Shown: positions 2,479 through 62,650, counted from the stretch's first letter. The stretch is DNA of 64,000 nucleotides from a virus (IMGVR_UViG_3300036795_000124:753-64752), one strand, 5' to 3'. Translations and numbers: made by a program. The notes: generated by a model from the letters alone, not told the origin.

Positions 2479-3056
2479 GCGGATCACAGGCCAACCGGAT
2501 GACCAGAACTGAGCGCACCGAGTTGTTGTCGCTCATTCGCAAGCGGGAAAAGGTGATGAAGACCATGGCGTCGGATCGCTCGGCGCAGATGCTGGCCGAG
2601 TTCGAGGCCCAGGCCGCGAAGATCTACGATTTCAACGACGACGAGATCTGGAAGGCGGCCACCGAGGAGGCGATGAAGGCGGCCAAGATCGCCCAGACCG
2701 GCATCGAGAAGCGATGCAAGGAACTTGGCATCCCGAAGGAATTCGCGCCCTCGTTGGAAGTCGCGTGGTTCGGCCGTGGCGAGAATGCGGTCAGCATGCG
2801 TCGCGCGGAATTGCGGCGGGCCGCGAAAGCCCGCATCGCCGCAATCGAGACCCAGGCGATCAGTCGCATCGAGCAGATGTCGATGGAGGCGCAATCCGAA
2901 TTGCTGTCGCACGGGCTCGATACCGACGCCGCGCAGAAATTCCTGGCCGCCGCCAAGGCTGATATGATTGCGCTGATGCCATCATTGGTGGTGATCGAGG
3001 TAGAAAAGATGATCGAGCCCACGTTCAGGCGCCGGCTGGCCACCAGCTATCATTGA
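2475..3056 (+). CDS. Hypothetical helical phage protein
   Basis: GGAGGT SD upstream and ATGA overlap at 2475. Confidence 0.7.
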   Translation: MSGSQANRMTRTERTELLSLIRKREKVMKTMASDRSAQMLAEFEAQAAKIYDFNDDEIWKAATEEAMKAAKIAQTGIEKRCKELGIPKEFAPSLEVAWFGRGENAVSMRRAELRRAAKARIAAIETQAISRIEQMSMEAQSELLSHGLDTDAAQKFLAAAKADMIALMPSLVVIEVEKMIEPTFRRRLATSYH

Positions 3057-3214
3057 TTTGCCGACCGCATCCCGAGCGCGATAGCATGGGCGCGTTCCGT
3101 GCGGAAAACGGCAAGAACCCTCTGGGGTGAGTCGATGGTGTCCTCTCGGAAAGGCCGGGGCTGGTTTGTGGCTTTTCCACGCCCCGGCCGCGAGGACTCG
3201 CGTCGCCCCCTTGG

Positions 3215-3231
3215 GTGAATCAGAATTGGTG
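3215..3231 (+). repeat. 17-bp element GTGAATCAGAATTGGTG, copy 1 of an inverted pair
   Basis: Exact reverse complement occurs at 12928-12944. Confidence 0.8.
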
Positions 3232-3240
3232 CATCCCTTG

Positions 3241-3456
3241 TCACGCTCCATCGTTGAGGATAATCGCGCGATCATTCCAGCCCAGGCGCCAGCTGAGGCC
3301 CGCCACGCTGTGATGCGGATGTGGACAGGCGTGGAATGGCGCGTCGGCAACGCGCGCCGCCCAGCCCGCCTCGTAGGCGGCAGGATCGGGCGCCGCCGTG
3401 CCGTGGATGATGGCCTCGTAGCGCACGAATTCAGCGTGATCCATCGCGCGCACCAT
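3241..3456 (-). CDS. Rmf/CrpP-fold-like small protein
   Basis: GGAGA SD; AYEAGWAAR...CPH...WRLGW pattern resembles ribosome modulation factor (GYxAG...CPY...WLxGW). Confidence 0.5.
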   Translation of the reverse strand: MVRAMDHAEFVRYEAIIHGTAAPDPAAYEAGWAARVADAPFHACPHPHHSVAGLSWRLGWNDRAIILNDGA

Positions 3457-4018
3457 CGCGTATCTCCACGCGGCGTTGATCCATCGCCTCCCGCGTAAGC
3501 ATCTCCGACGTGCGCTCAATCCATTCCCCGTCCGGGGCCGGCGGCGGTGCGATCAGCATAGCGTCCGCGCTGCCATAGCGCACGATCGCCGGCAGCCGCT
3601 TGGCCTGCAGCCAGGATCGCAGCGCGGGATCGCGGTGCGCATCCGACCGCGCCGGATCGACCCATATCTGGACGACCTGCATCTCCTTGTCGCCGTCGAC
3701 GATGATGGTGTCGAGCATGCAATCGATCAGATAGCCCATGTGGTCAGGGCGCTTCATGCCTGCCGTGGTCGGATCGAACAGCCAGCGGCACGACCAGTAC
3801 CGACGCACATCAGGCCGCTCGGCGTAGATCGAACAGCCCTTGTGATTGAGGAATTGGCACTTGGTCATTGCCGGCTTGTTCAGCGGGCGCTCGACGGGGA
3901 CGAGCGTACAGCAAGATTTGCAACTGCCGCAGGCGCGTCCCAGTACCGGTTGGCCGTAGATCGTCCAATCGTCGCCGGTCTCGGTACCGATGACGACATT
4001 AGCAAGTCGATGTTCCAT
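3431..4018 (-). CDS. YkgJ-like Cys-cluster (Zn or Fe-S) protein
   Basis: CGSCKSCC...C...CSIYAERP motif; AGAGGACACC start-associated motif before the ATG. Confidence 0.7.
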   Translation of the reverse strand: MEHRLANVVIGTETGDDWTIYGQPVLGRACGSCKSCCTLVPVERPLNKPAMTKCQFLNHKGCSIYAERPDVRRYWSCRWLFDPTTAGMKRPDHMGYLIDCMLDTIIVDGDKEMQVVQIWVDPARSDAHRDPALRSWLQAKRLPAIVRYGSADAMLIAPPPAPDGEWIERTSEMLTREAMDQRRVEIRDGARDGSR

Positions 4019-4122
4019 GTGGTGTCCTCTCAAGTCTTGTAAGGGCAGCGACGGGGGGGGGAGCGATTCCCCCTCCCCGCCACACGGGGGCCGGACTCGG
4101 GCCGCAAAGCGATATGCTTGGC

Positions 4123-4779
4123 TTAGCCCGCCGGGAGCCGGTTCCCCCGTATCAGTTTTCCCCGCCGTGCCAAGGCCAGGCCGATCATGCTCGTGCCTAG
4201 CGGCAACAAAGAAATGGGCTCAGGAATGTTGGAGCCGCCGGTTGCGAAGCCGGTTACGGCCCCTCCGTCGAAGCCAATATGCGCCGCTGCCAGGAAGCCG
4301 CTGGCATTTTCAGTCAGCACATTGTCGGCGTCGGCCCAGCTATTTCCGAGTGTAGCAATGAGGCTGACGATGATCTCGCCGGAGCGAGATGCCCACCCGT
4401 CACTGGAATTGATGGTCTGGTTGAATAAACCAAAACCATCTTCGTTGCCTGCGCCCCCATTGGCATACGTGGGTTGGATGGCGAGTGGCGCCGAGGTGCC
4501 ACTGATGAGGCCGAGACTCCACGTTCCGTTGACGTTCATCGCCACGCTACCACCGTCGAGCATGTAGTAGGTATTGCCGCCATTCGTGAATGCGCCGAAC
4601 GTGACAAGAGCGTGTGTTGGGGTCGTTAGATTTACGTCTACATGGATGTACGGCCCGATGCCACCGACGTTGTCGCGATCGAGGCTGAAGTTGAAGTAGC
4701 TGAAGTCAGCCTTCGCTTGGCTGGCTCCCAGAGTGAGGAAACCAGCCAAAGCAGTGGACAGTAGAATATTGTGTTTCAT
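4123..4779 (-). CDS. PEP-CTERM sorting-domain protein with signal peptide
   Basis: N-terminal signal ending AKA-D; C-terminal IPEP, hydrophobic segment, then RRGK. Confidence 0.85.
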   Translation of the reverse strand: MKHNILLSTALAGFLTLGASQAKADFSYFNFSLDRDNVGGIGPYIHVDVNLTTPTHALVTFGAFTNGGNTYYMLDGGSVAMNVNGTWSLGLISGTSAPLAIQPTYANGGAGNEDGFGLFNQTINSSDGWASRSGEIIVSLIATLGNSWADADNVLTENASGFLAAAHIGFDGGAVTGFATGGSNIPEPISLLPLGTSMIGLALARRGKLIRGNRLPAG

Positions 4780-4794
4780 TTGTGGAACTCCTCA

Positions 4795-5247
4795 TCAGTA
4801 GAAGCGCGCGCCGCCCTCGATGATGATGCGGCGCGCATTGCCGATCGGCATCTCGGCGAACGAGTCTTTCCAATCGAGCACATGCCGGCTCATTGGCACG
4901 AAATAACCCGTCTCTATTGCGCCGAATTCGATGATGTCGCCGATCATCGACGAACGACGGCCCCGTTCGAGATTGTGGCGGGTGATGGTGATGGGATCGA
5001 TCGGCCGGATCGATGGCGGCGGCCGCACCGACCAGCAGTCGGACGCGCCGCCGTTCTGGGTGAGTGTGCGGAATAAGGCGAGTGCGGTGTGGCTTGGCAG
5101 GATGCCGTGCATCTCGGCGACGGCCTCGTAGTGGCCCGCCTGGAATATGATGCCAGCCTGCCGCGCGCGGTTGATATTGGGTCCCGCGAAGAGCTCGTCG
5201 GGCAATCCGGTCGAATCCGCACGGATGAAGGAAAGGCGATGATACAT
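4795..5247 (-). CDS. Hypothetical protein (weak YodL-like motif)
   Basis: GAGG SD; RRSSMIGDII motif. Confidence 0.55.
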   Translation of the reverse strand: MYHRLSFIRADSTGLPDELFAGPNINRARQAGIIFQAGHYEAVAEMHGILPSHTALALFRTLTQNGGASDCWSVRPPPSIRPIDPITITRHNLERGRRSSMIGDIIEFGAIETGYFVPMSRHVLDWKDSFAEMPIGNARRIIIEGGARFY

Positions 5248-5258
5248 GGTCGTTTTCC

Positions 5259-5843
5259 TCAATTGGGATCGATGCGCTGTAGCTCGGCCTCGAAGTCCTC
5301 CAACGCGGCGCGCGCGACCGCCACCATCTCTGGCGTCGGTGCTTTCGGCAGCAGGAAATTATTAGCCATCCGACCTGTCGTCTCGCCCGCGCCATCGTTG
5401 GCGAACATATCGAGCCCGATGCCGGTTACCTGATTACGATCGTTGCGCTCGATCGGATGGCATTGCATCAAGCGGCCGAGCGGCGCGTCGTCGCGACGAT
5501 ATTCCGTCATCGCGATCACTGCCTCGATCCTGTCGGGCAGCGATCTGACGCCATCCCGGTCGGCTTTGTCGATCGTCGCCTGATCATTCCTCTCGATCGT
5601 CGCGACCCAGGCTTCGGTAAGATAGCTGAGCGACGTGGCCTCCTTGGCGATGCAGAACGTCCTGATCAGGGTGATCATGCGCGAACGTGCCCGTGCACTG
5701 GACATATTCACGCCGATGACGTGGATGATACCCGGGCAATGCACTAGGAATGTTGGTGGGAGCGAGCCCTGAGTGGTCAGGATGCGCTCGCATGTCGCAA
5801 TGTCCTTGCGCATGACCTCGCGCCATTGTTGTTCGGTGTTCAT
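5259..5843 (-). CDS. Hypothetical phage protein
   Basis: ATG follows repeat element R1. Confidence 0.7.
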   Translation of the reverse strand: MNTEQQWREVMRKDIATCERILTTQGSLPPTFLVHCPGIIHVIGVNMSSARARSRMITLIRTFCIAKEATSLSYLTEAWVATIERNDQATIDKADRDGVRSLPDRIEAVIAMTEYRRDDAPLGRLMQCHPIERNDRNQVTGIGLDMFANDGAGETTGRMANNFLLPKAPTPEMVAVARAALEDFEAELQRIDPN

Positions 5844-5924
5844 GTTTCGGTGTCCCTCTGTGATCCTGGACATCTGGCCCAGGCGAAAGGGGCCTGTGTG
5901 AATACAGGCCGCTTCCGTCGCAGG
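5844..5924 (-). repeat. Structured intergenic element R1
   Basis: stop-CCTGCGA-hairpin-CCTGG..CCAGGA-CAGAGGGACACC-ATG. Confidence 0.8.
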
Positions 5925-6407
5925 TCAGAATTTTCGCTGGCGGAAACCCGGCTTGCCGATCATGGCATCCATGATGTCGCGCCGCTGCATCCCGAAAGGG
6001 ATGCGATAGGCTGGATCGATAAAGACCCACAGGTGGTATTTGTTGCTGGTATCGTTGAGTCGCGATTCCGCCGGATAAATCTCAAGTCCCTCGCATTCGG
6101 GGCCGACGAGCTCGTTCTTGATTCATTGGAAATGCCGCCAATCGCGGAAGATCGGGCGACCGTCGCGGCGGCGGATGTTCAAGTGTTTGGCCGAGACGTT
6201 GCCGTCGCGGTCATAGACCGGCCGCACCTGGACCTGATACAGATCATTGATCCAGTACTCGCAATCATGAGTCTCCGCTTCCAACGCGAGACGAACATCG
6301 TCCCGGCTTTGCCCTGGAATATGCGCCAGCGTTGCATCGATATCTGCGTCGATGACGGGCGTGACCGTCGCCCGCTGCAACGGCCGCCAATGCTTCTGCG
6401 ACGACAT
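5925..6407 (-). pseudogene. Conserved phage protein interrupted by an in-frame TGA at 6123-6125
   Basis: RDWRHFQ*IKNELVGPECEGLEIYPAESRL continues in frame to the stop at 5925, immediately before R1. Confidence 0.7.
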
Positions 6408-6835
6408 CAGGCGTCATCCTTCGGAGCGGATGACGCGATGAATTCGTCCCATAGGGCGGCGGGTTCTCCGTTGATGGCAACGGCCGGTCTGGTTTGCGCG
6501 TTGGCCCATGCGACGAATTGCTCGCGCGTGACCCACTCGATTGTGCGCCGCAGATCATCGATGGTCTGGCCCGGCGGATCGCTGTCGGTCTCATTGTCAG
6601 GCCCGACCACGAGACCCTTGCCGGGGAGCGGCTGGCCATCGAGCCGGGTGCGGACGCGAAAGAAATGCCGCTGCGGCTTGAGCAGGCCGTTGTCATCGAC
6701 GAACAGGACGTCGCCGTTGGGCCAGGAATGGCCGTGGCAGATCAGGTCGCCGTCGATGATCTTAGAAATGTTGGCGTAGTTGTACGTGGTCTCCGAGATG
6801 GTACGGCTCTCGGGATCGATCAGATAGCCTTTCAT
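6407..6835 (-). CDS. DUF3846-like protein
   Basis: YLIDP...DVLFVDDNGLL...GKGLVVG motif; follows R2. Confidence 0.6.
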   Translation of the reverse strand: MKGYLIDPESRTISETTYNYANISKIIDGDLICHGHSWPNGDVLFVDDNGLLKPQRHFFRVRTRLDGQPLPGKGLVVGPDNETDSDPPGQTIDDLRRTIEWVTREQFVAWANAQTRPAVAINGEPAALWDEFIASSAPKDDA

Positions 6836-6918
6836 GATTGGTGTCCCTCTGTGATCCTGGCCCTTGACTGGCCCAGGCCGATGCAGCGTTTCACGTGAAA
6901 CGCTGCATCTGTCGCGGG
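6836..6918 (-). repeat. Structured intergenic element R2
   Basis: Contains a perfect 30-bp palindrome (6880-6909) as the P1 stem. Confidence 0.85.
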
Positions 6919-7119
6919 TCAGGCGCGTCGTTTGTTTTTCTTTCTGATAGGAGGTTTCAGCCGAGCCCGGACTGAATCTACTGGCAGCATCTTGCCATAG
7001 GTCCTGCCCGGGATGCCGGTACGCAAAGCGGCACGTCCGGCTTCGGTGATGACGTAGCGATTCCCTTCAAGGGCGACCCATCCAGCGTCGATCATTTTCT
7101 CTAATTCTGTCTTGTTCAT
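6919..7119 (-). CDS. Small basic protein, winged-helix-like
   Basis: GWVALEGNRYVITEAGRAAL wing-like motif. Confidence 0.5.
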   Translation of the reverse strand: MNKTELEKMIDAGWVALEGNRYVITEAGRAALRTGIPGRTYGKMLPVDSVRARLKPPIRKKNKRRA

Positions 7120-7123
7120 ATCA

Positions 7124-7345
7124 TCACCATCGCCAATTCTCGGGTATATCCTGATAATAGCGATCGGCCGTCGCCTCATGGCGCGCTGCATCGACGATTT
7201 CGCCCATGGCCCGCAATCGCATCGCTTTACTCTTCGATGTTGCATAGGCTGCCAGGAAAACCAGATTCGCGGCAGTCTCGGCGAGTTCGTCGGCGCTCAT
7301 CGCATCGAGATTGAGCTCGCCCAGGTCGTAGGGGAACTTGCTCAT
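7124..7345 (-). CDS. Hypothetical protein
   Basis: ATGA-coupled ORF. Confidence 0.55.
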   Translation of the reverse strand: MSKFPYDLGELNLDAMSADELAETAANLVFLAAYATSKSKAMRLRAMGEIVDAARHEATADRYYQDIPENWRW

Positions 7346-7554
7346 AGCGCGAGCACCAATTCTTCCGCGCCGAACACTTGATCGGCGCCGCACGACTCAC
7401 AGCGATAATTGCGCGCATCGGGATCGACGCCCATCGCTTCTTCGCCGCACACGATACAGAACCCCGGATTGTCGAGGGTCGTGTTGTAACGTTCGACGGC
7501 TGCGAGGATGACGTCGTCGGTCAGGCTCGCGTGCCAAAGCTTACGATCGATCAT
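7342..7554 (-). CDS. Zn-ribbon protein
   Basis: CxxC...CxxC. Confidence 0.65.
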   Translation of the reverse strand: MIDRKLWHASLTDDVILAAVERYNTTLDNPGFCIVCGEEAMGVDPDARNYRCESCGADQVFGAEELVLAL

Positions 7555-7747
7555 GGCGATGGTCCCTCCGTTCGGGTGGCGTTGTGCCGACGACGAGGTC
7601 GATGAACGCGCCGGCAAAGGTGAAGCAAACGAGGATCAAGCCGGCCGCCTGGGCGCACACGTCGAGCACGCCCATGACGATGGCCGGGATCACCAGGAGC
7701 GCGGCGATGATCGCGGCGACGATGATGAAGAACGGCAACTCGGTCAT
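7541..7747 (-). CDS. Small membrane protein
   Basis: Two hydrophobic segments; ATGA overlap. Confidence 0.55.
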   Translation of the reverse strand: MTELPFFIIVAAIIAALLVIPAIVMGVLDVCAQAAGLILVCFTFAGAFIDLVVGTTPPERRDHRHDRS

Positions 7748-8223
7748 GTCGGCGCCTCGCCGTGATGCGGGCAACCGTCGAGCACAGGATCATCCGACGC
7801 CACACCATTGGCCTCGGCCATGGCTCGGTAGTTTTCATGCAGCTCGTGGCCGCCGTCGCTGACCTTGGATGGATCGAACTTGCCAAAGGCTACCGCCAGA
7901 CGCCAGCCGATCGCATCAGGAGAGCGCAGGATGTAGCCGGCGCATGTGGCGGGTTTTTCTGTGCCCGACGAATGGCAAGCGAAGCCATGGGTCGCTATGT
8001 CGAATTGTTCGATCGAAATCATGGAGCTGCCATAGCCGGTCGCAGCGGAGTGTCGGAATGCCTCGGCGGGGAACTCGCCCACGGCATCTTTGCGCCAGGG
8101 GCACGTATCGCAGGGACGACGCCGGTAGGAGCCGCCACCGCCCGTCAGGGTGTGCACAGCATGGTCAGGCCCCGCGAACCGCGTAGCGGTTATCTGGGGG
8201 CGCCTCTTTTGTGGTTTTTGCAT
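7744..8223 (-). CDS. Cys-rich phage protein (DUF6283-like)
   Basis: PCDTCPWRKD...FACH...CAG motif; follows R3. Confidence 0.65.
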   Translation of the reverse strand: MQKPQKRRPQITATRFAGPDHAVHTLTGGGGSYRRRPCDTCPWRKDAVGEFPAEAFRHSAATGYGSSMISIEQFDIATHGFACHSSGTEKPATCAGYILRSPDAIGWRLAVAFGKFDPSKVSDGGHELHENYRAMAEANGVASDDPVLDGCPHHGEAPT

Positions 8224-8295
8224 TGTGGTGTCCTCTGTTGAATTCCTGGGGTCTGGTCCAGGGAGAAGCACGGCGGACCGTGCTTCCCTCGCGGA
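8224..8295 (-). repeat. Structured intergenic element R3
   Basis: TCCGCGA-GGGAAGCACGG..CCGTGCTTCTC-CCTGG..CCAGGA-CAGAGGACACC. Confidence 0.85.
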
Positions 8296-9303
8296 TCAGA
8301 CGATGCGCCAGCGATCGTTGCCGGCGGAGACGATTTTCGATCCCGACACCTTGGCAAGACGATTGATATGGCGTTGCGCGATCGGCCAGCCGGTCGCGTC
8401 CGTCAATTCCTTCTTGCTGGCGCCGTCCTTGCGCTTGAGCAATTCAATCGCTGTCGCCTGTTTGCCGATGCCACGCGGACGCGATGCTCCCGCGACGCGT
8501 GCGGCACGTGGCGGTCGTTGTCCGCCGAGACGCGGATCGATCGTACGAACGATCTTCCCGGTCTTGTCGATGATCTCGACCGTCATATCGATCTTGCGGG
8601 CGATGTTCTGCGCGATTTCGCCGAGCTTGAATTGCGGCCCGATCGGGATGCGGAACACGTATGGCCCCCCCTCCGTCGGAAGGGCTGAAAGATCGTTCTG
8701 CGGTCCTGGCGGCTCCTGGGGTTCCGCAGGCGGGGGCGACGACGCGGGGGGGGCATTCCCTCCGTTCGTCTTCCCCGCCCCCTGGACCCCCTTGCCCTTC
8801 GCGTCCTGAGGGGCTTTCGCCGGTTCCCCCGGGGGCTTGGGCAAGGAATGATCATAGGGAACGGGAACGCCCGCCCCATTGCCGGCGGGGATGGCGAAGA
8901 TGGTCGCGCGTCGTCCGTGCTTGCCGTGCGTCGCGTTCATCGCCTGGGCCTTGCCGACCGCCTCGTCCAGGCTTGCCGCCGTCTCGTCGAATCGCTTGGT
9001 CGGGCTGGCGCGGAAATGGATCGAAAAACTCGCCGCGCTGGCGATCTTGGTCTGTGCATCGGCGTCCGCCGGGTGCATTTTCTTGCCGCCGGTCGCGGCG
9101 GATTTGTCCGCCTGCTTGGGCGGGACCTCGCCAGCATCGCCGTCTTCCAGCGGCATGATCTGCCACGATCCCTCCTTGTACATACGAACTTCGTAATCGG
9201 CCCCGCGCGCCTTGAAACCGTTGCGCTTCAATTCGGCTATGGCGGCCTCTTTGGTCGGCCAGCTCATTTGTCTGAGTTGAGCCAGCGTCGTGAATTGTGT
9301 CAT
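8296..9303 (-). CDS. Multidomain protein with C-terminal DUF3489-like winged helix
   Basis: KQATAIELLKRKDGASKKELTDATGW motif; long Pro/Gly linker. Confidence 0.65.
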   Translation of the reverse strand: MTQFTTLAQLRQMSWPTKEAAIAELKRNGFKARGADYEVRMYKEGSWQIMPLEDGDAGEVPPKQADKSAATGGKKMHPADADAQTKIASAASFSIHFRASPTKRFDETAASLDEAVGKAQAMNATHGKHGRRATIFAIPAGNGAGVPVPYDHSLPKPPGEPAKAPQDAKGKGVQGAGKTNGGNAPPASSPPPAEPQEPPGPQNDLSALPTEGGPYVFRIPIGPQFKLGEIAQNIARKIDMTVEIIDKTGKIVRTIDPRLGGQRPPRAARVAGASRPRGIGKQATAIELLKRKDGASKKELTDATGWPIAQRHINRLAKVSGSKIVSAGNDRWRIV

Positions 9304-9413
9304 GAGTTTCTGGTGTCCCTCTGTATCCTGACATCGTCCATCGATCCCAGGCCGGGGCACCAACGCGCAGACCCAAGGGGAGGTCGGCGCGCGGCGCTCC
9401 GGTACGGGGTCGC
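9304..9413 (-). repeat. Structured intergenic element R4
   Basis: CCCGTA-P1-CCTGGG..TCAGGA-CAGAGGGACACC. Confidence 0.8.
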
Positions 9414-10544
9414 TCAGGCCGCGAGCAATTGCGCCCTGGTCGGATCGCCCTCGGCGTTGGAAATCGCTTTCCATTGCGAGGCCGGCAGATCGATCACGTG
9501 CCCGCCGATCCGCTCGAATTCGGTCGCGCGGTCGTAGCCCGGCAAATCTTCCGCCGTGCGGGTGATCGCATTGAACAAGCCGTAGCGGGTCAATGAACCG
9601 CCCTCGATCAGATGCCGCAGCACGCCGCCGCGCTCATCCTCGGTCATGCCGAACCGCTTGGAGGCGAATTCGACCACCTTGACCGGATCGCCCTCGATCT
9701 TCTGCTGGGTGGTATCGGTGATTTTGGCGATGCGTGCGTCGAAACGGGCCTCGTCGAACGCGCCTTTGCAGACGTCGCGGATTTGTCCCCATAGCGCCTT
9801 GTCGGTAAGCCGGCGCGTCTCGTCGGACAGCAATTCCGCGATACCCTCGCCAGCCACCAGATCATGCCGCGCGCCGACGTGACGACGCTTCATGCTGTCG
9901 GAGGCGAACACCGCGAGATTGGTGCACGCCTTGGTCCAGATCGCGGTCTCGATCGACAGCGCGCCGGAACCGACCTCGGAATTCGAGATCACCATCGCCG
10001 GCACGCAGGTATCGAAGATGTTGTGCGATCCGTCGCCCATGCGCGCGCCCATCGGGATGTCCCGGTTGATGCGTTTGTCGACCACCTTGAGATAGAGCCG
10101 GCGCTCGGTGATCTCGCATGATATGACCTCGACCTTGAGATCAACGAGCACCGGCAGCACCGCCTCGGCGAGATCGACGTTTTCCAACGGCCGATAGGCG
10201 TCGGAGAGAAACGCCCGCGTGCGGTTGTCCAGGGTGCGGATCAATCTTGTGCCGGGCGTCTGTTCGATCCAGGTGTTGACGTTCTGCGCCAGCAAGTGCG
10301 GCGCCTCGGCCCGCATCCGATCATAGTATTTCGACGGGATGCCGACGTAATTGCCGATCTGATCATGCGCCAGATCGTTGACGCCGAATTCCTCGGTGCC
10401 CACCGACAATTCGATCGGCGCCTTGGGATCGGACGGGTCGGCCAGCATGACGATATCCTTGGTCGATGCCACCAGATCGCGCTTGGCGCCCTGCTGGCGT
10501 TCGATCTCGGCCGCAAGCTGGCTGAGGGTTTTTCCTGTTTTCAT
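9414..10544 (-). CDS. DUF932/DUF945-family phage/plasmid protein
   Basis: MKTGKTLSQLAAEIERQ...RAFLSDAYRPLEN...TRYGLFNAITRTA pattern. Confidence 0.75.
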   Translation of the reverse strand: MKTGKTLSQLAAEIERQQGAKRDLVASTKDIVMLADPSDPKAPIELSVGTEEFGVNDLAHDQIGNYVGIPSKYYDRMRAEAPHLLAQNVNTWIEQTPGTRLIRTLDNRTRAFLSDAYRPLENVDLAEAVLPVLVDLKVEVISCEITERRLYLKVVDKRINRDIPMGARMGDGSHNIFDTCVPAMVISNSEVGSGALSIETAIWTKACTNLAVFASDSMKRRHVGARHDLVAGEGIAELLSDETRRLTDKALWGQIRDVCKGAFDEARFDARIAKITDTTQQKIEGDPVKVVEFASKRFGMTEDERGGVLRHLIEGGSLTRYGLFNAITRTAEDLPGYDRATEFERIGGHVIDLPASQWKAISNAEGDPTRAQLLAA

Positions 10545-10624
10545 TGGTAGGGTGTCCTCTGTATCCTGATCATCATTGATCAGGCCGAGGCGTCGTCCCG
10601 TTTGGGGACGGCGCTTCGGTACGA
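10545..10624 (-). repeat. Structured intergenic element R5
   Basis: P2 is the perfect stem CCTGATCA/TGATCAGG. Confidence 0.85.
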
Positions 10625-10750
10625 TCAACGGTCGCACCGTCTGTCGTAGTGATTACGTTCGTGGCGTATGCGTATGGAATATCCGACGATCGCCCCGATA
10701 CAAAACAGCGCCAAGACGCTGATGATCGTCAGGACTAATGTCCAATCCAT
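10625..10750 (-). CDS. 41-aa single-TM protein (absent from the ORF track)
   Basis: AAGGAGGG SD; MDWTLVLTIISVLALFCIGAIVGYSIRIRHERNHYDRRCDR. Confidence 0.6.
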   Translation of the reverse strand: MDWTLVLTIISVLALFCIGAIVGYSIRIRHERNHYDRRCDR

Positions 10751-10764
10751 TTTTTTCCCTCCTT

Positions 10765-10959
10765 TTAGACCAGTTCATCCGGTTCTTCGGTTAGCGGTGG
10801 CGTGAGTTCATCCGCCCAAGCGTGGATTTCCTCGACCATGACCTGGCAGAGCAATCGCTCCCTTGGCGAGAGCGTAACGCCATCGAGCAGGTCCTGATAA
10901 TGATCCAGCGCCTGATGGATGATCGCCAATCGGAGCAGCAATTGCGCGCCGATTGTCAT
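10765..10959 (-). CDS. Hypothetical protein
   Basis: ATGA-coupled ORF. Confidence 0.55.
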   Translation of the reverse strand: MTIGAQLLLRLAIIHQALDHYQDLLDGVTLSPRERLLCQVMVEEIHAWADELTPPLTEEPDELV

Positions 10960-11141
10960 GTCGATTTGTCCAGTTGGAGCATAGGCACCGCCGCGAACAA
11001 GGTGGCTGGCCGATCGCAGCGAATGACGAATCGATCGGGGCCGGTTCGCACGACGATCAGTTTGGGATCGGGCTTGTTGGTCAGGGCATCGAGCGCCTTG
11101 TCGCGATCGCTGCCGGGGATGACGGTGATGCGCGTGAGCAT
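10956..11141 (-). CDS. Hypothetical protein
   Basis: TGATG overlap at 11141. Confidence 0.5.
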   Translation of the reverse strand: MLTRITVIPGSDRDKALDALTNKPDPKLIVVRTGPDRFVIRCDRPATLFAAVPMLQLDKST

Positions 11142-11272
11142 CAGAGACACAGCAGCGGCAGGCGGAAATCGCTGAAAAGCATCAGCCCGGCGAAGATGAG
11201 CATCGCCCCGATGACCGCATCAAGCGTGGGCGCCAGAACGCCGGTGAGGGCGTCCGTTATTGCGAATTTCAT
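11141..11272 (-). CDS. Small membrane protein
   Basis: Follows R6; hydrophobic. Confidence 0.55.
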   Translation of the reverse strand: MKFAITDALTGVLAPTLDAVIGAMLIFAGLMLFSDFRLPLLCL

Positions 11273-11348
11273 GGTTGGTGTCCTCTGTTTTCCTGAGTCG
11301 GTACTGGCCCAGGCAAATGCGGCCCGATGGGGCCGCATCTGTCGCGGG
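11273..11348 (-). repeat. Structured intergenic element R6
   Basis: CCCGCGA-CAGATGCGGCCC..GGGCCGCATTTG-CCTGGG..TCAGGA-CAGAGGACACC. Confidence 0.85.
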
Positions 11349-11504
11349 TCAGCGTTGATGGCCGTTGGGAAGCACGCGGCCACGTTCATCGATAATCTGG
11401 TGATAGAGTCTGCTGTCCTCTGAGATCGCGATGGCGACGATAAATCCGAGCGCGAATATGATGAGAACGCCCAGACCAGCGGCGATCACCAGCCAACGCT
11501 TCAT
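11349..11504 (-). CDS. 51-aa single-TM protein (absent from the ORF track)
   Basis: ATGA overlap; MKRWLVIAAGLGVLIIFALGFIVAIAIS... Confidence 0.6.
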   Translation of the reverse strand: MKRWLVIAAGLGVLIIFALGFIVAIAISEDSRLYHQIIDERGRVLPNGHQR

Positions 11505-11995
11505 CGACTCGCGCCGTCGCGTCTGATCTTGCGAGGATTGCGGGCGGTGACGATGGTGGGAATGCTGGCGAGCGGTCCCAGGCGATTGGCCCGGCCGACC
11601 TCGGCATCGATCTCAGCCTGTGAAGGGCCGCTCTCGATGATCTGGTAGCGCGATGCTGAGCGTGAACCACGCGGCTCCTTGCTCAGAATGTCGCGCATCT
11701 CCTCGGCGACGGCCTCGCGGTCGTAATCGCCGAATGCGATCTGCCATATCCCGTCCTCGCCGCGTTCCAGCAGCGTGAAGTACTGGCGCGGCTTGCGATT
11801 GGGGACGACCAGCGCATCGCTGAGCACATCGCGCAGCTCGGCGAGCGTCGCGATAGCGCCCTCGGCGAACTGACGATCGTGGACGGTATGCGCCCGTCCG
11901 CGCTTGGCGCCGGCCGCAAGCAATCTGGCGTCGATCAGTTTGATGACCTCGGCCATAGCGTCGACCACGGTCGTGGCTTTGATGATCTGTTTCAT
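11501..11995 (-). CDS. Hypothetical phage protein
   Basis: Follows R7. Confidence 0.7.
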   Translation of the reverse strand: MKQIIKATTVVDAMAEVIKLIDARLLAAGAKRGRAHTVHDRQFAEGAIATLAELRDVLSDALVVPNRKPRQYFTLLERGEDGIWQIAFGDYDREAVAEEMRDILSKEPRGSRSASRYQIIESGPSQAEIDAEVGRANRLGPLASIPTIVTARNPRKIRRDGASR

Positions 11996-12076
11996 GGTTG
12001 GTGTCCTCTGTTTGGTCCTGGCTGATCCAGGGAGATGCAGCGCCCCTTTGTGGACTGGGGCTGCATCCCTCGCGGA
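11996..12076 (-). repeat. Structured intergenic element R7
   Basis: TCCGCGA-GGGATGCAGC..GCTGCATCTC-CCTGG..CCAGGA-CAGAGGACACC. Confidence 0.85.
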
Positions 12077-12391
12077 TCAGGCGCCGGTGCAGGCCTCGTA
12101 GTATTCCGACGTTGGCGCGGGTGATGGTGTCCGAAATGTCTCGTAGGCACGTTGCATAGCCGCATCGCGAGCCGTCTCGTGTTCCGCGAGTTTAGCTGCG
12201 TAATAAGAGTCCGAAATCGCGTACGGTTCAGCGATTTCTCCCAAGGGCGTGCCGGTGCTGTTGTGGACAAAACGCGTGTAGGTGACGGCGCCATTATGCA
12301 ATTGATCCAATTGCCATACGGCCTCGTTGTAGACGTGCCAGGCGTGGGCTATCATCGCGTTGTATTTTACGTCGTCCGATGATGATTCCAT
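12077..12391 (-). CDS. Hypothetical protein
   Basis: Follows R8. Confidence 0.6.
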   Translation of the reverse strand: MESSSDDVKYNAMIAHAWHVYNEAVWQLDQLHNGAVTYTRFVHNSTGTPLGEIAEPYAISDSYYAAKLAEHETARDAAMQRAYETFRTPSPAPTSEYYEACTGA

Positions 12392-12486
12392 TGTTCGGTG
12401 TCCTCTGTTGTCCTGGTCGATCCCAGGCCGATGCAGGCACGAACGATCCGGAGATCGCCCGTCCTGCATCGGTACGGGATAGGGAA
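12392..12486 (-). repeat. Structured intergenic element R8
   Basis: CCCGTA-CCGATGCAGG..CCTGCATCGG-CCTGGG..CCAGGA-CAGAGGACACC. Confidence 0.85.
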
Positions 12487-12798
12487 TTACGCGGCGGTTT
12501 TCTTGTTCGTGTTGCTGTTGGCCGGTTTCTTCGCGACGGGCTTCTTCGCCCTCGCGATCTTCGGCTCGAAGCGATAGCGCTTCAATCCATCGTCGGTCTT
12601 GCTGCCGTCGATGATGATGAGCTTGAAACCGAAGCGATCGGCGATGCGCTGCAACGACCACGAATTATGCGGCGTGACGCCGCCGGCCTTCTCCAGCAAT
12701 TTCGCGGCGGTCAATCCGTTCTTCGCCTGCAACGCGATGCAAACGATGGCGGTCTGGCCGCGCGGTTCGCGATCGGTCGTGCTGGTGATCTGTGCCAT
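12487..12798 (-). CDS. Small basic DNA-binding-like protein (DUF3489-like), first gene of the leftward operon
   Basis: wHTH-like core ending DDGLKRYRF, Lys-rich tail. Confidence 0.55.
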   Translation of the reverse strand: MAQITSTTDREPRGQTAIVCIALQAKNGLTAAKLLEKAGGVTPHNSWSLQRIADRFGFKLIIIDGSKTDDGLKRYRFEPKIARAKKPVAKKPANSNTNKKTAA

Positions 12799-12814
12799 TG
12801 TTTTGGTGTCCTCT

Positions 12815-12862
12815 GGTTTCGCCCATACCGGGGCTCATCGGGTCGGCTGATTGCCGACGACC
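12815..12862 (-). ncRNA. Candidate type III hammerhead ribozyme
   Basis: GGUC/GUCGGC-AAUCA-GCCGAC-CCGAUGA-GCCC-CGGUAU-GGGC-GAAA-CC; core intact except U4C; stem III only 3 bp. Confidence 0.65.
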
Positions 12863-12927
12863 GCGTTGCAACGGCATTCTGTGATGAATGCTGCCGCAAC
12901 GCTGTTTTGGATTAACAGAGGAGGACA

Positions 12928-12944
12928 CACCAATTCTGATTCAC
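12928..12944 (-). repeat. 17-bp element, copy 2, in the putative leftward promoter
   Basis: Exact inverse of 3215-3231; lies 2 nt downstream of a TTGACA on the minus strand. Confidence 0.8.
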
Positions 12945-13526
12945 GATGTCAAAGACTTCGCAACGACTCCGAACATCCCGCAACGCATGCAAGGAAGACG
13001 TTTTCGCTGGAATTGATCGGCCTTGCAGGCAGTGCCATGGTGGCACGAGCGATCGATTCAATGCGGAACATCTGTAGCTGCATCAGCGGCGTCATCACGA
13101 CGGCGGCGGATGGCATGAGAGGCGGAATGGCGGATGTGATTGTCGAACAGCGGCGGGAGGCGGCAATGATCGGAATGCGTGACGCAGTGTTTGCATCCTG
13201 CCTCGTTGGCAGATCGGCAGATCGTGGGGATGCGGCCCGTGGGCCAATACGGCGATCGATCGATCGCTACGCGGGAACATTGCCATGTCCCTGCACACGC
13301 GCGGTGGAACGCGTCATGTGCGTCAGATGAAATTGAGAAAGAACATGGATATCAACGTGTTATCCCGATATCCGACACACATCGTAACGGCGTGGCACCC
13401 CGGCGCAAGTCGGCAATTCCGCTTGGGTAATCAACAGCTTACAGGGCCTCGCTGCGCATCCGTGGCGATCTCCGCGCGATTCCGCGTCAATTCCGTTTCA
13501 CACAGCGAAACCCCCGGAGGACGCGC

Positions 13527-14126
13527 ATGAATGACGCATCTACGCCCCCCGCCGCCGCGCTGCAGATCGTCTATCGTCCCCTCAAAGAACTCGAACCGTA
13601 CGCCAGAAATGCCAGACGACACACCGCGCGTCAGATCGGCAAATTGCGGTCATCGCTGGCGCGCTTCGGATGGACCAACCCCATGTTGATCGCTGGTCGG
13701 GAAATGATCGCCGGTCACGGCAGGCTGGCGGCGGCGTTGGAGATGGCGGCGGCAGGCCAGGCGGTGGCGGGCAATCCCGATCCGTGGACCGGACCCACGG
13801 TCGATCTGTCGCATCTATCGACGGGCGACCGCTCGGCCTATCGATTGGCCGACAATCGCATCGCGCTCGACGCCGGCTGGGACAACGAATTGCTGCGCCT
13901 GGAAATGGCCGATCTGCAAGCCATGGGCGTTGATCTCTCGTTGACCGGCTTCGCCAATATCGAAATCGGCACCATCCTCGGCGCGGCCACGCCATCGTCC
14001 CGCGGTCTGGCCAACACCGGGTTGCAATATCAGATCGTCATCGAATGCAAGGACGAAAAGCAACAGGCCGAACTCCTCGCCCAATGGCGGGCGGAAGGAT
14101 ATCCATGCAAACCGCTGATCCTCTGA
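13527..14126 (+). CDS. ParB/Srx N-terminal-domain protein
   Basis: PYARNAR...FGWTNP...IAGHGR...YRLADNRIA motifs; GGAGG SD. Confidence 0.85.
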   Translation: MNDASTPPAAALQIVYRPLKELEPYARNARRHTARQIGKLRSSLARFGWTNPMLIAGREMIAGHGRLAAALEMAAAGQAVAGNPDPWTGPTVDLSHLSTGDRSAYRLADNRIALDAGWDNELLRLEMADLQAMGVDLSLTGFANIEIGTILGAATPSSRGLANTGLQYQIVIECKDEKQQAELLAQWRAEGYPCKPLIL

Positions 14127-20777: not shown

Positions 20778-20997
20778 CGAATTCATCGAATTCCCAGACG
20801 GGACGCGTGCGTTCGTCCGGTTCAGCGGCCGGCGGCCGAGGGCCAAGCCGTGCAAGTGCGGCGCGCCATCGACGTTGCAATGCGATTATCCAACGCTGGT
20901 CGGCACCTGCGACGCCTATCTATGCCAGCGTTGCGCGGTGCGCATCGGGCCTAATCGCGATTATTGCCCTGATCATCCGAGAGGGCACCAACCATGA
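20767..20997 (+). CDS. Cys-rich Zn-finger-like protein
   Basis: CKC...CD...CD..LC..C...C..H. Confidence 0.6.
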   Translation: MPYDEFIEFPDGTRAFVRFSGRRPRAKPCKCGAPSTLQCDYPTLVGTCDAYLCQRCAVRIGPNRDYCPDHPRGHQP

Positions 20998-62039: not shown

Positions 62040-62052
62040 GTCGGTGTCCTCG

Positions 62053-62459: not shown

Positions 62460-62650
62460 TGGTGTCCTCCCTCAAACATTCTCACGGAGTCCTCGTGTCG
62501 TTCCTTATCCCAGCGTGTTTCCGATTCGGTAAGCGGACGTTCCCGCATGATCTTCAGTTTGTCGTCTAATCTGGCTATCTCCATATCGACGGCACGCTCA
62601 ATACAGAGCATGCGGCATATATCGCGAGTGAAATTCGATATCCCGGTCAT
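62450..62650 (-). CDS. Hypothetical protein
   Basis: ATGA-coupled. Confidence 0.5.
   Translation of the reverse strand: MTGISNFTRDICRMLCIERAVDMEIARLDDKLKIMRERPLTESETRWDKERHEDSVRMFEGGHQCL

Follow-up and report, generated by a model that had tools for sequence, protein, structure and literature searches.

Eight copies of a two-hairpin RNA element punctuate the leftward early/accessory operon of a soil virus. They were found in a 64-kb stretch (IMGVR_UViG_3300036795_000124:753-64752), hereafter the window, out of a single 70.6-kb virus record. The element belongs to a family of at least 60 copies in nine related soil viral contigs (the window and eight further IMG/VR contigs), with up to 23 copies per genome, and it is strongly supported as a real structured RNA that is uncatalogued relative to the families of Rfam 15. 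Hammerhead or twister ribozymes fill these slots in sister phages, and on that basis the element probably marks the points at which a long message is cut or insulated. Our favoured reading, to which we give a probability of about 0.5, is that it is an RNA module at which the polycistronic early mRNA would be cut.

Conserved architecture of the element

The leftward operon consists of about 23 small genes, running from 12798 to about 3241. Inside each block, of one to five translationally coupled genes, neighbours abut or overlap; the elements occupy the gaps between one block and the next. Reading the minus strand and folding every gap yielded eight intergenic elements between 5841 and 12489, each 78–116 nucleotides (nt) long, that all run from a stop codon through a short junction to hairpins P1 and P2 and then, by way of an A/C-rich linker and a box (ACAGAGG(G)ACACC), to an ATG 3–8 nt beyond the box. 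P1 is a hairpin of 9–23 bp starting 7 nt past the stop codon, and P2 is a hairpin of 5 bp (CCUGG...CCAGG) that abuts P1 without a linker. A covariance model trained on only three copies (E3, E7, and E8) and used to search the 64-kb window with filters off recovered the remaining five (E-values 2e-13 to 4e-3), with no comparable match elsewhere in the window. Together, strand reading, gap folding, and the three-copy model confirm the single minus-strand architecture that a preliminary description had proposed for these eight sites. The box CAGAGGACACC, allowing at most one mismatch, was matched 10 times against 0.79 expected, a number reached in 0 of 100 shuffles.

Base pairing was strongly maintained within the window. 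Across the eight copies, 95.8% of cells were paired and changes on both sides occurred at 8 of 15 pairs, including 7 of 10 in P1. These values were reached by no shuffle, and sliding the partners by one to three columns left 31%–43% paired. The preliminary description had spoken of covarying two-hairpin cassettes, which held within the window for P1; P2 is invariant among the window copies, and its covariation is visible in relatives alone.

We sought relatives through the capsid protein, the ABC-ATPase gene beside the operon, and a scan for the P1/P2 pattern. Further copies were present in eight contigs (3 in G002, 2–3 in G001, 3 in G004, 9–11 in L228, 8 in L229, 12 in G046, 23 in G048, and 1 in G047), always on the coding strand of the equivalent operon. 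An alignment of 60 copies with E-values up to 1e-3, drawn from the nine viral contigs, had 95.5% of cells paired, with both-sided changes at 14 of 15 pairs (10/10 in P1 and 4/5 in P2). Partners slid out of register were 32%–46% paired, and no shuffle was as high as the observed alignment. Variants of P2 in the relatives include CCUCG/UGAGG, CCUUG/CAAGG, CCAGC/GCUGG, CCCGU/ACGGG, and UCUGG/CCAGA. RNAalifold independently yielded both P1 and P2. The alignment and RNAalifold agree in supporting selection on structure, as had been suggested from the window alone.

Conservation also extended to sequence and position. In 30 copies, the nucleotides at the junctions were nearly invariant, with an A before P1 in 28, a G preceding it in 23, CC after P1 in 29–30, and GG ending P2 in 29–30. 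The first P1 pair is C-G in 53 of 60 copies, and the base of P1 (GAWGCAGC...GCUGCWUC) and the P2 stem are conserved in sequence. In 56/60 copies, the 20 nt 5' of P1 contain a stop codon that ends an open frame of 40 codons or more, most commonly at a distance of 10 nt from P1; the box follows the hairpins in 56/60, with one copy in L229 lacking it. P1 and P2 contain 26 G.U versus 11 A.C oppositions on the sense strand, counts that favour folding of the sense strand only moderately.

The stop codon, which the preliminary description had placed ahead of the hairpins, itself belongs to a third conserved helix, P0. In this helix, the 5' flank (the last sense nucleotide, the stop codon, and two or three further nt) is complementary to the 5' side of the P2 region, where its partner consists of the last two nt of the P2 5' arm and the first four or five loop nt. 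A typical pairing is C-UGA-YCC with GGRYCAG. Pairing each flank with its own P2 5' region gave a duplex energy of -8.3 kcal/mol, compared with -6.2 +/- 0.26 for permuted partners (0/5000 permutations, z = -7.6). The two strands change together, as in UGAUCC/GGAUCA, UGACCC/GGGUCA, UAACCC/GGGUUA, CGGCC/GGCCG, GAAGC/GCUUC, and CGAUC/GAUCG, and in UAACCC/GGGUUA the stop codon itself is altered. Counted by fixed columns, P0 appears weaker (64% paired) because its register shifts between copies. No other pair of regions (flank and tail, loop and loop, loop and tail, or any region and the downstream coding sequence) showed an excess for its own partners.

P0 and P2 use the same nt, or fill a 4–5 nt P2 loop fully, and so cannot coexist in many copies. 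This overlap makes them look like alternative folds, either P0 with P1, as a long hairpin with an internal loop, or P1 with P2. From these patterns, the RNA appears to be selected for both.

The family matched nothing catalogued and had a narrow distribution. Rfam 15 gave no match at gathering score over the 64 kb, and at E-values up to 5 over 3000–13100 it gave only three chance-level microRNA and small nucleolar RNA matches, with no ribozyme or RAGATH family, in agreement with the earlier view that the motif is unnamed. A blastn search of 5500–13000 against 50,697 phage records had zero matches. Forty viral records with capsids 59%–63% identical contained no copies, nor did G003 and G005, and the absence from these 40 more distant records indicates that the family is confined to one clade. 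Among prophage relatives in genome contigs, none was closer than 62%; the distant capsid relatives in cellular genome contigs were mostly proteobacterial. Relatives found through the DUF932 protein (47%–52% identity) contained no family member, with one weak two-hairpin-like gap in L122 at 14.6 bits. A looser scan of IMG/VR for the P2 3' arm followed by the box returned more than 118 mostly single, chance-level matches and was uninformative.

Ribozymes in equivalent gaps

Sister phages carry self-cleaving ribozymes in the gaps where the window carries the element. We searched with a strict hammerhead descriptor, which had 0 matches in 40 shuffles. To match, a sequence needed three stems, both core motifs in full (CUGANGA and GAAA), the A15.1-U16.1 pair, and a nucleotide other than G at the cleavage site. 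The descriptor identified type II hammerheads in G001, G004, and L229 (three) and type III hammerheads in G004 and G046. Its canonical cores were thus located in L215, L216, L229, and L262, and in none of the eight window elements. An Rfam scan of the G001 operon returned three twister-P1, one twister-P5, and a hammerhead III (E-values 7e-9 to 3e-4), all below the curated cut-offs and with intact cores. Twister was judged by its core nucleotides, P1/P2/P4, and two pseudoknots, as in RF03160 and RF02684, and had no match in the window. Where gaps were read in G001 and L229, they consisted of a stop codon, the ribozyme, the same box, and an ATG.

The exchange was clearest around the DUF3489 gene. 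On the upstream side of this gene, G001 has a type III hammerhead in place of the two-hairpin element seen in the window, L229, L228, and G004. On the downstream side, G004 is the exception, with a type II hammerhead against the two-hairpin element of the window, L228, and L229. In the window, L228, and G048, the two-hairpin element was found alone, with no canonical ribozyme detected.

Type II hammerheads resemble the element in layout. Five of them, at 8374–8313, 8118–8048, and 7723–7658 on the minus strand of L229, 2525–2460 on the minus strand of L216, and 5843–5915 on the plus strand of L215, have a complete canonical core and a pseudoknot between loop I and the 3' tail, a contact described for type II hammerheads by Perreault et al. 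(PMC3088659). In type II hammerheads, stem II closes the fold as UGAC::GUCA and can take in the stop codon, mirroring P0, so that hammerhead and element share a closing helix with the stop codon, a hairpin, the cut (putative in the element), a second hairpin, and the box. Rfam 15 scans reported none of the five, and two were also missed in a targeted 201-nt search at E-values up to 10. Surveys of soil phages that use Rfam only may therefore undercount these ribozymes.

The window operon itself opens with a hammerhead-like RNA. Its leader (12796–12905, minus strand), slot 0 of the series, contains a long hairpin at about 12902–12863, a type III hammerhead-like RNA at 12862–12815 with core CCGAUGAG (U4 to C), the box at 12814–12805, and the ATG of gA at 12798. 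The three stems of the hammerhead-like RNA measure 6, 4, and 3 bp, and the RNA lines up, position by position, with canonical type III hammerheads that occupy the corresponding place in G046, G004, and G001. It fits the hammerhead only under a relaxed descriptor that admits the U4 to C change, and Rfam was silent there at E-values up to 5.

We also note two sequence likenesses between twisters and the element. The twister 3' end AAUGCAGAGGGA (L215 10411–10491 and 7351–7425, plus strand) resembles the box ACAGAGGGA of the window elements, and the twister 5' segment AAUGCAGC resembles the conserved P1 base GAUGCAGC. These may be due to chance or may be a trace of common descent.

Possible functions of the element

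Action at the RNA level, cleavage, and a cutting enzyme are what we infer for the element from the structure, conservation, position, and ribozyme interchange observed above. The substrate would be the form with P0 and P1, an extended hairpin with a GCGA/CCU internal loop. The cutter would be a host structure-specific RNase, most likely one such as RNase III, acting at or near the P1/P2 junction. After the cut, P1 would cap and protect the 3' end of the upstream piece, and the freed strand would refold so that P2 stands at the new 5' end, before the single-stranded A/C-rich linker and the ribosome-binding box. A cut followed by refolding would account for selection on two competing helices. 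Cutting by a type II hammerhead leaves stem III as the upstream 3' hairpin and stem I at the downstream 5' end before the box, and P1 and P2, joined without a linker, present the same layout. The earlier suggestion of a role in mRNA processing or stability gains strong, if indirect, support from the ribozymes in the same and orthologous slots, with cleavage of the element itself staying putative.

Early RNase III signals of phage T7 are found between early genes as an extended hairpin, often with an internal loop, of roughly 20 bp or longer. The element is similar in its combination of P0, internal loop, and P1, and in the 3' hairpin predicted to remain on the upstream mRNA. It differs in that there is no sequence relationship, its helix is shorter than 20 bp in 27/60 copies, and it has P2 as an alternative 5' hairpin.

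The closest parallels, which the preliminary description had not named, are RAGATH motifs and the ribozyme arrays of phages and prophages. Ribozymes flanking variable phage genes were described in 2011 (PMC3088659), and processing of long phage transcripts has been proposed for prophage hammerheads flanking individual genes or small blocks (PMC3088659; PMC6765202). The element shares with these hammerhead and twister arrays (Perreault et al. 2011, PMC3088659) the positions, the operon type, the exchange at orthologous slots, and the variable genes in between, but has neither the CUGANGA/GAAA core nor a twister core. RAGATH motifs, in the accounts of PMC11061315 and PMC5737381, were named in 2015 as conserved non-ribozyme RNAs located beside ribozymes and number 36. 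Like them, the element is a covarying intergenic RNA beside hammerhead and twister in phage-type gene arrays, found by association: it accompanies hammerhead and/or twister in the operons of G001, G004, L229, and G046, and the hammerhead-like leader in that of the window. It matches no RAGATH family in Rfam 15, a comparison that covers the motifs deposited in Rfam rather than all 36, and it differs from them in that its P0 includes the stop codon and competes with P2, and in its coupling to a fixed ribosome-binding box.

For the hammerhead and twister ribozymes of bacteria and phages, the biological role has been a question of long standing (PMC6765202), as has that of the dozens of RAGATH motifs beside them. 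This family is a favourable test case, with at least 60 natural variants, dense covariation, as many as 23 copies in one genome, hammerhead exchange at orthologous gene boundaries, and competing helices, one of which includes the upstream stop codon. Knowing whether the element is a ribozyme, an RNase site, or an insulator would show which need ribozymes serve in phage early operons. In practical terms, the element also offers a natural, portable part that separates cistrons and is joined to a standard ribosome-binding site.

Several observations weigh against our favoured reading. P0 (6–7 bp), a loop of 3–4 x 3 nt, and P1 (median 14 bp) total at least 20 bp in 33/60 copies only, which is short for RNase III. 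By folding energies, the sense and antisense strands are about equally stable. The A of the stop codon has no standard partner in 44 copies, and in the most frequent P0 variant an A.C mismatch corresponds to G.U on the opposite strand, which makes the strand evidence only moderate. Neither an RNase gene nor an RNA-binding protein was recognised in Pfam and PHROG scans of 50 window proteins. The window sequence is contained in one public run alone, a soil-metagenome DNA run. In addition, association with ribozymes is a fallible guide, since 33 of 36 RAGATH motifs have no known function and RAGATH-18 is the scaffold of a TnpB guide RNA (PMC11061315).

The element could instead insulate genes without being cleaved, an alternative we hold as tentative. 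The hairpins would stay in the intact mRNA, block 3' exonucleases and 5'-end-dependent scanning by RNase E, and keep the box from pairing with variable neighbouring coding sequence, and newly acquired genes would be expressed in a standard way. In line with this, the box stays mostly free of pairing (mean unpaired probability 0.58) regardless of how the upstream flank behaves, and hairpins and box are separable, the box standing alone at 12814, 4030, 62470, and 62052 and the hairpins without it in L229. The start of P1, 7 nt past the stop codon, is about the closest that a hairpin can stand without hindering termination, given the footprint of the ribosome on mRNA. Insulation leaves unexplained, however, the upkeep of P0 and P2 as overlapping, mutually exclusive helices, as well as the cleaving RNAs of sister phages in the same and orthologous slots.

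It is unlikely, in our view, that the element is a new class of self-cleaving RNA, cutting itself near the P1/P2 junction either directly or after a rearrangement between P0 and P2. One version would be gated by termination, with a ribosome on the stop codon melting P0, P2 forming, and the cut following at the junction; such a module would have replaced hammerhead and twister across the early operon in some soil phages. The same guilt-by-association logic led to twister-sister, pistol, and hatchet (PMC5737381), although most ribozyme-associated motifs have no known function (PMC11061315). The exchange with a hammerhead at an orthologous slot, the nearly invariant junction nucleotides, and the genomes that rely on the element alone are consistent with self-cleavage. 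Against it, conserved unpaired nucleotides are few, no tertiary pairing was found beyond P0, no ribozyme model matches, and P0 and P2 cannot coexist in copies with P2 loops of 4–5 nt, which leaves no stable pseudoknotted core.

Regulation in trans seems improbable as a full account. A phage or host protein would recognise the P1 base, the P2 stem, or the box and shut off or time the translation of early genes, much as T4 RegA and RegB act on early mRNAs. Sequence conservation goes beyond the needs of pairing, in the P1 base and P2 stem and also in the box, which is nearly identical in genomes with capsid identity to the window of 76%–77% where measured. The ACACC part of the box has no evident pairing with the 3' tail of 16S rRNA. 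The protein scans described above, however, offered no candidate RNA-binding protein or RNase, and a regulator by itself leaves the P0/P2 alternative and the ribozyme exchange unexplained. Such recognition would be compatible with, and not exclusive of, a cut site.

Gene content between the elements varies widely from relative to relative, which bears on possible functions at the DNA level. Homologues of window operon proteins numbered 4/23 in the operons of the first three relatives and 7/23 across the loci of all six. Genomes differ in the presence of entire element-bounded cassettes, and the elements persist; the stretch from gA to gJ contains four such cassettes in the window but none in L229. 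E3 and E7 have a common 5' half, and E7 and E8 a common 3' half. These patterns make it probable that recombination between copies reshuffles modules. The earlier idea of cassette shuffling fits in that gene content varies among relatives, with recombination only a putative function of the element.

The least probable of the readings we considered is that the elements are DNA sites, namely sites of recombination or boundaries of cassettes (comparable to the mini-circles of T4 PeSL or to integron attC) or terminator-promoter units, because repeats of 70–110 nt should recombine as a by-product, every copy lies on the coding strand and is locked to stop and start codons, G.U pairs are tolerated, the conserved blocks vary in spacing, unlike a promoter, no element has a sigma-70-like promoter or an intrinsic terminator, and no recombinase or integrase gene was seen among the operon proteins tested. 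A promoter and terminator scan of 10.6 kb found one promoter-like site (3.4 expected), away from any element, and no terminator-like site coinciding with P1 or P2. Integron attC core sites (RYYYAAC / GTTRRRY) were absent from the eight element sequences on direct reading.

Likenesses drawn earlier to start-associated sequences (SAS) and to promoter-early stem-loop (PeSL) cassettes did not hold beyond analogy. In Cluster K mycobacteriophages, SAS/ESAS are asymmetric boxes with a Shine-Dalgarno-like core, 3–8 nt before the starts of some non-structural genes; an imperfect inverted repeat stands ahead of roughly half of the SAS copies at a variable spacer, and their function is not known (PMC3203893). 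The 13-bp SAS consensus GGGATAGGAGCCC had 17 matches at up to 3 mismatches against 20.5 expected, none at the elements, and the element differs in sequence, in its two hairpins and stop-codon helix, and in sharing slots with ribozymes, so that the likeness is one of layout only. T4-type PeSL cassettes reportedly bound small non-essential modules whose content varies between related phages. Unlike these, the element has no sigma-70 promoter, and its conserved 3' part is a ribosome-binding box.

We set aside several further candidates. Readthrough of the stop codon stimulated by P1 was rejected since the reading frame beyond the stop stayed open no more often than either alternative frame (32, 30, and 34 of 44). 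Translational coupling by unmasking of the Shine-Dalgarno sequence was not supported, as the unpaired probability of the box was 0.58 when free and 0.57 with the flank held single-stranded. Mimicry of tRNA or an RNase P substrate (RCCA after P0) applied to two or three copies only, CsrA-type GGA sites were discounted with the GG of CAGGA being paired, and the analogies to HK022 put and lambda nut were dropped, as put and nut sites occur once per operon.

Individual copies, stand-alone boxes, and neighbouring genes

All eight window copies are on the minus strand and are listed here in the order of transcription. E1 (12389–12489) begins with TAA at 12489–12487 and has AUCCC as the 5' strand of P0, the junction GUA, P1 at 12472–12428, P2 at 12427–12412, the box at 12407–12397, and the ATG of gB at 12391–12389; covariance model R2 scores it at 65 bits. 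The remaining seven begin with TGA. E2 (11993–12079; stop 12079–12077) has a perfect P0 (UGAUCC::GGAUCA) and the junction GCGA, followed by P1 at 12069–12032, P2 at 12031–12017, the box at 12010–12000, and the ATG of gC at 11995–11993. E3 (11270–11351; stop 11351–11349) has P1 at 11341–11314, P2 at 11313–11292, the box at 11287–11277, and the ATG of gE at 11272–11270. E4 (10542–10627; stop 10627–10625), with P0 UGAUC::GAUCA and the junction GUA, has P1 at 10619–10585, P2 at 10584–10565, and the box at 10561–10551, and it precedes the DUF932 gene gI (ATG 10544–10542).

The longest P1 is that of E5 (9301–9416; stop 9416–9414), at 9402–9352 after the junction GUA; P2 follows at 9351–9327, the box at 9323–9312, and the ATG of the DUF3489 gene gJ at 9303–9301. 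E6 (8221–8298; stop 8298–8296) is the copy whose orthologous slot in G004 holds a type II hammerhead, and has P1 at 8288–8263, P2 at 8262–8245, the box at 8237–8227, and the ATG of the DUF6283 gene gK at 8223–8221. E7 (6833–6921; stop 6921–6919) has P1 at 6911–6878, P2 at 6877–6856, the box at 6851–6840, and the ATG of the DUF3846 gene gP at 6835–6833. E8 (5841–5927; stop 5927–5925) has P1 at 5917–5884, P2 at 5883–5865, the box at 5860–5849, and the ATG of gR at 5843–5841. The distal P1 stem of E7 (6887–6902) reads CGTTTCACGTGAAACG and agrees with the bacterial parS consensus TGTTTCACGTGAAACA at 14/16 bases; the window has no second site of this kind (0.1 expected when up to 3 mismatches are allowed), and a ParB-domain gene lies at 13527–14123.

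The box also occurs without the hairpin pair. Within the operon it heads two more genes, at 12814–12805 in the leader and at 4031–4021 before gU. In the latter gap (4016–4125, minus strand), the box is GAGAGGACACC, the ATG is at 4018, and different GC-rich hairpins precede; neither covariance model R1 nor R2 matches there, and the gap is not a member of the family. At the end of the operon (3137–3245, minus strand), a terminal hairpin (GGCCGGGGC...GCCCCGGCC) is followed by UUUCC and by an orphan box at 3147–3137 that has no start codon. The hairpin and orphan box after the last gene may be the operon terminator and the remnant of a lost cassette. Near-copies of the box also precede the ATG of genes outside the operon, again with no hairpin pair, as GGAGGACACC at 62461–62470 and CGAGGACACC at 62043–62052 on the minus strand, and AGAGGGCACC at 20980–20989 on the plus strand. 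These occurrences indicate that the box is a separate, genome-wide module for translation starts.

Recognised genes for the large terminase, portal, capsid, sheath, and baseplate identify the virus as a tailed phage whose tail is contractile. The window has 60% G+C, and no tRNA genes were found in its 64 kb. In the leftward operon, four genes encode domains of unknown function (DUF932, DUF3489, DUF6283, and DUF3846), and most others have no known function.

Two genes of the operon had unusual features. One, at 4126–4779 on the minus strand, encodes a protein of 218 aa with an N-terminal hydrophobic, signal-like segment and, at its C-terminus, a PEP motif, a hydrophobic stretch, and a basic cluster. 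By its sequence, this end looks like a PEP-CTERM sorting signal, which would be unusual for a phage. The other, at 5925–6407 on the minus strand between gP and E8, contains a single in-frame TGA at 6125–6123. Read through as X, its 160-aa product matches DUF7694 over residues 70–130, spanning the stop at codon 95, and the gene would be either broken or recoded.

An inverted repeat of 22 nt brackets the entire leftward operon. Its arms, at 3215–3236 and 12923–12944, are 91% complementary and have the core GTGAATCAGAATTGGTG. The left arm comes just past the last leftward gene; the right arm falls within the 5' part of the first gene that runs rightward. The pair could represent two operators, an inversion site, or chance.

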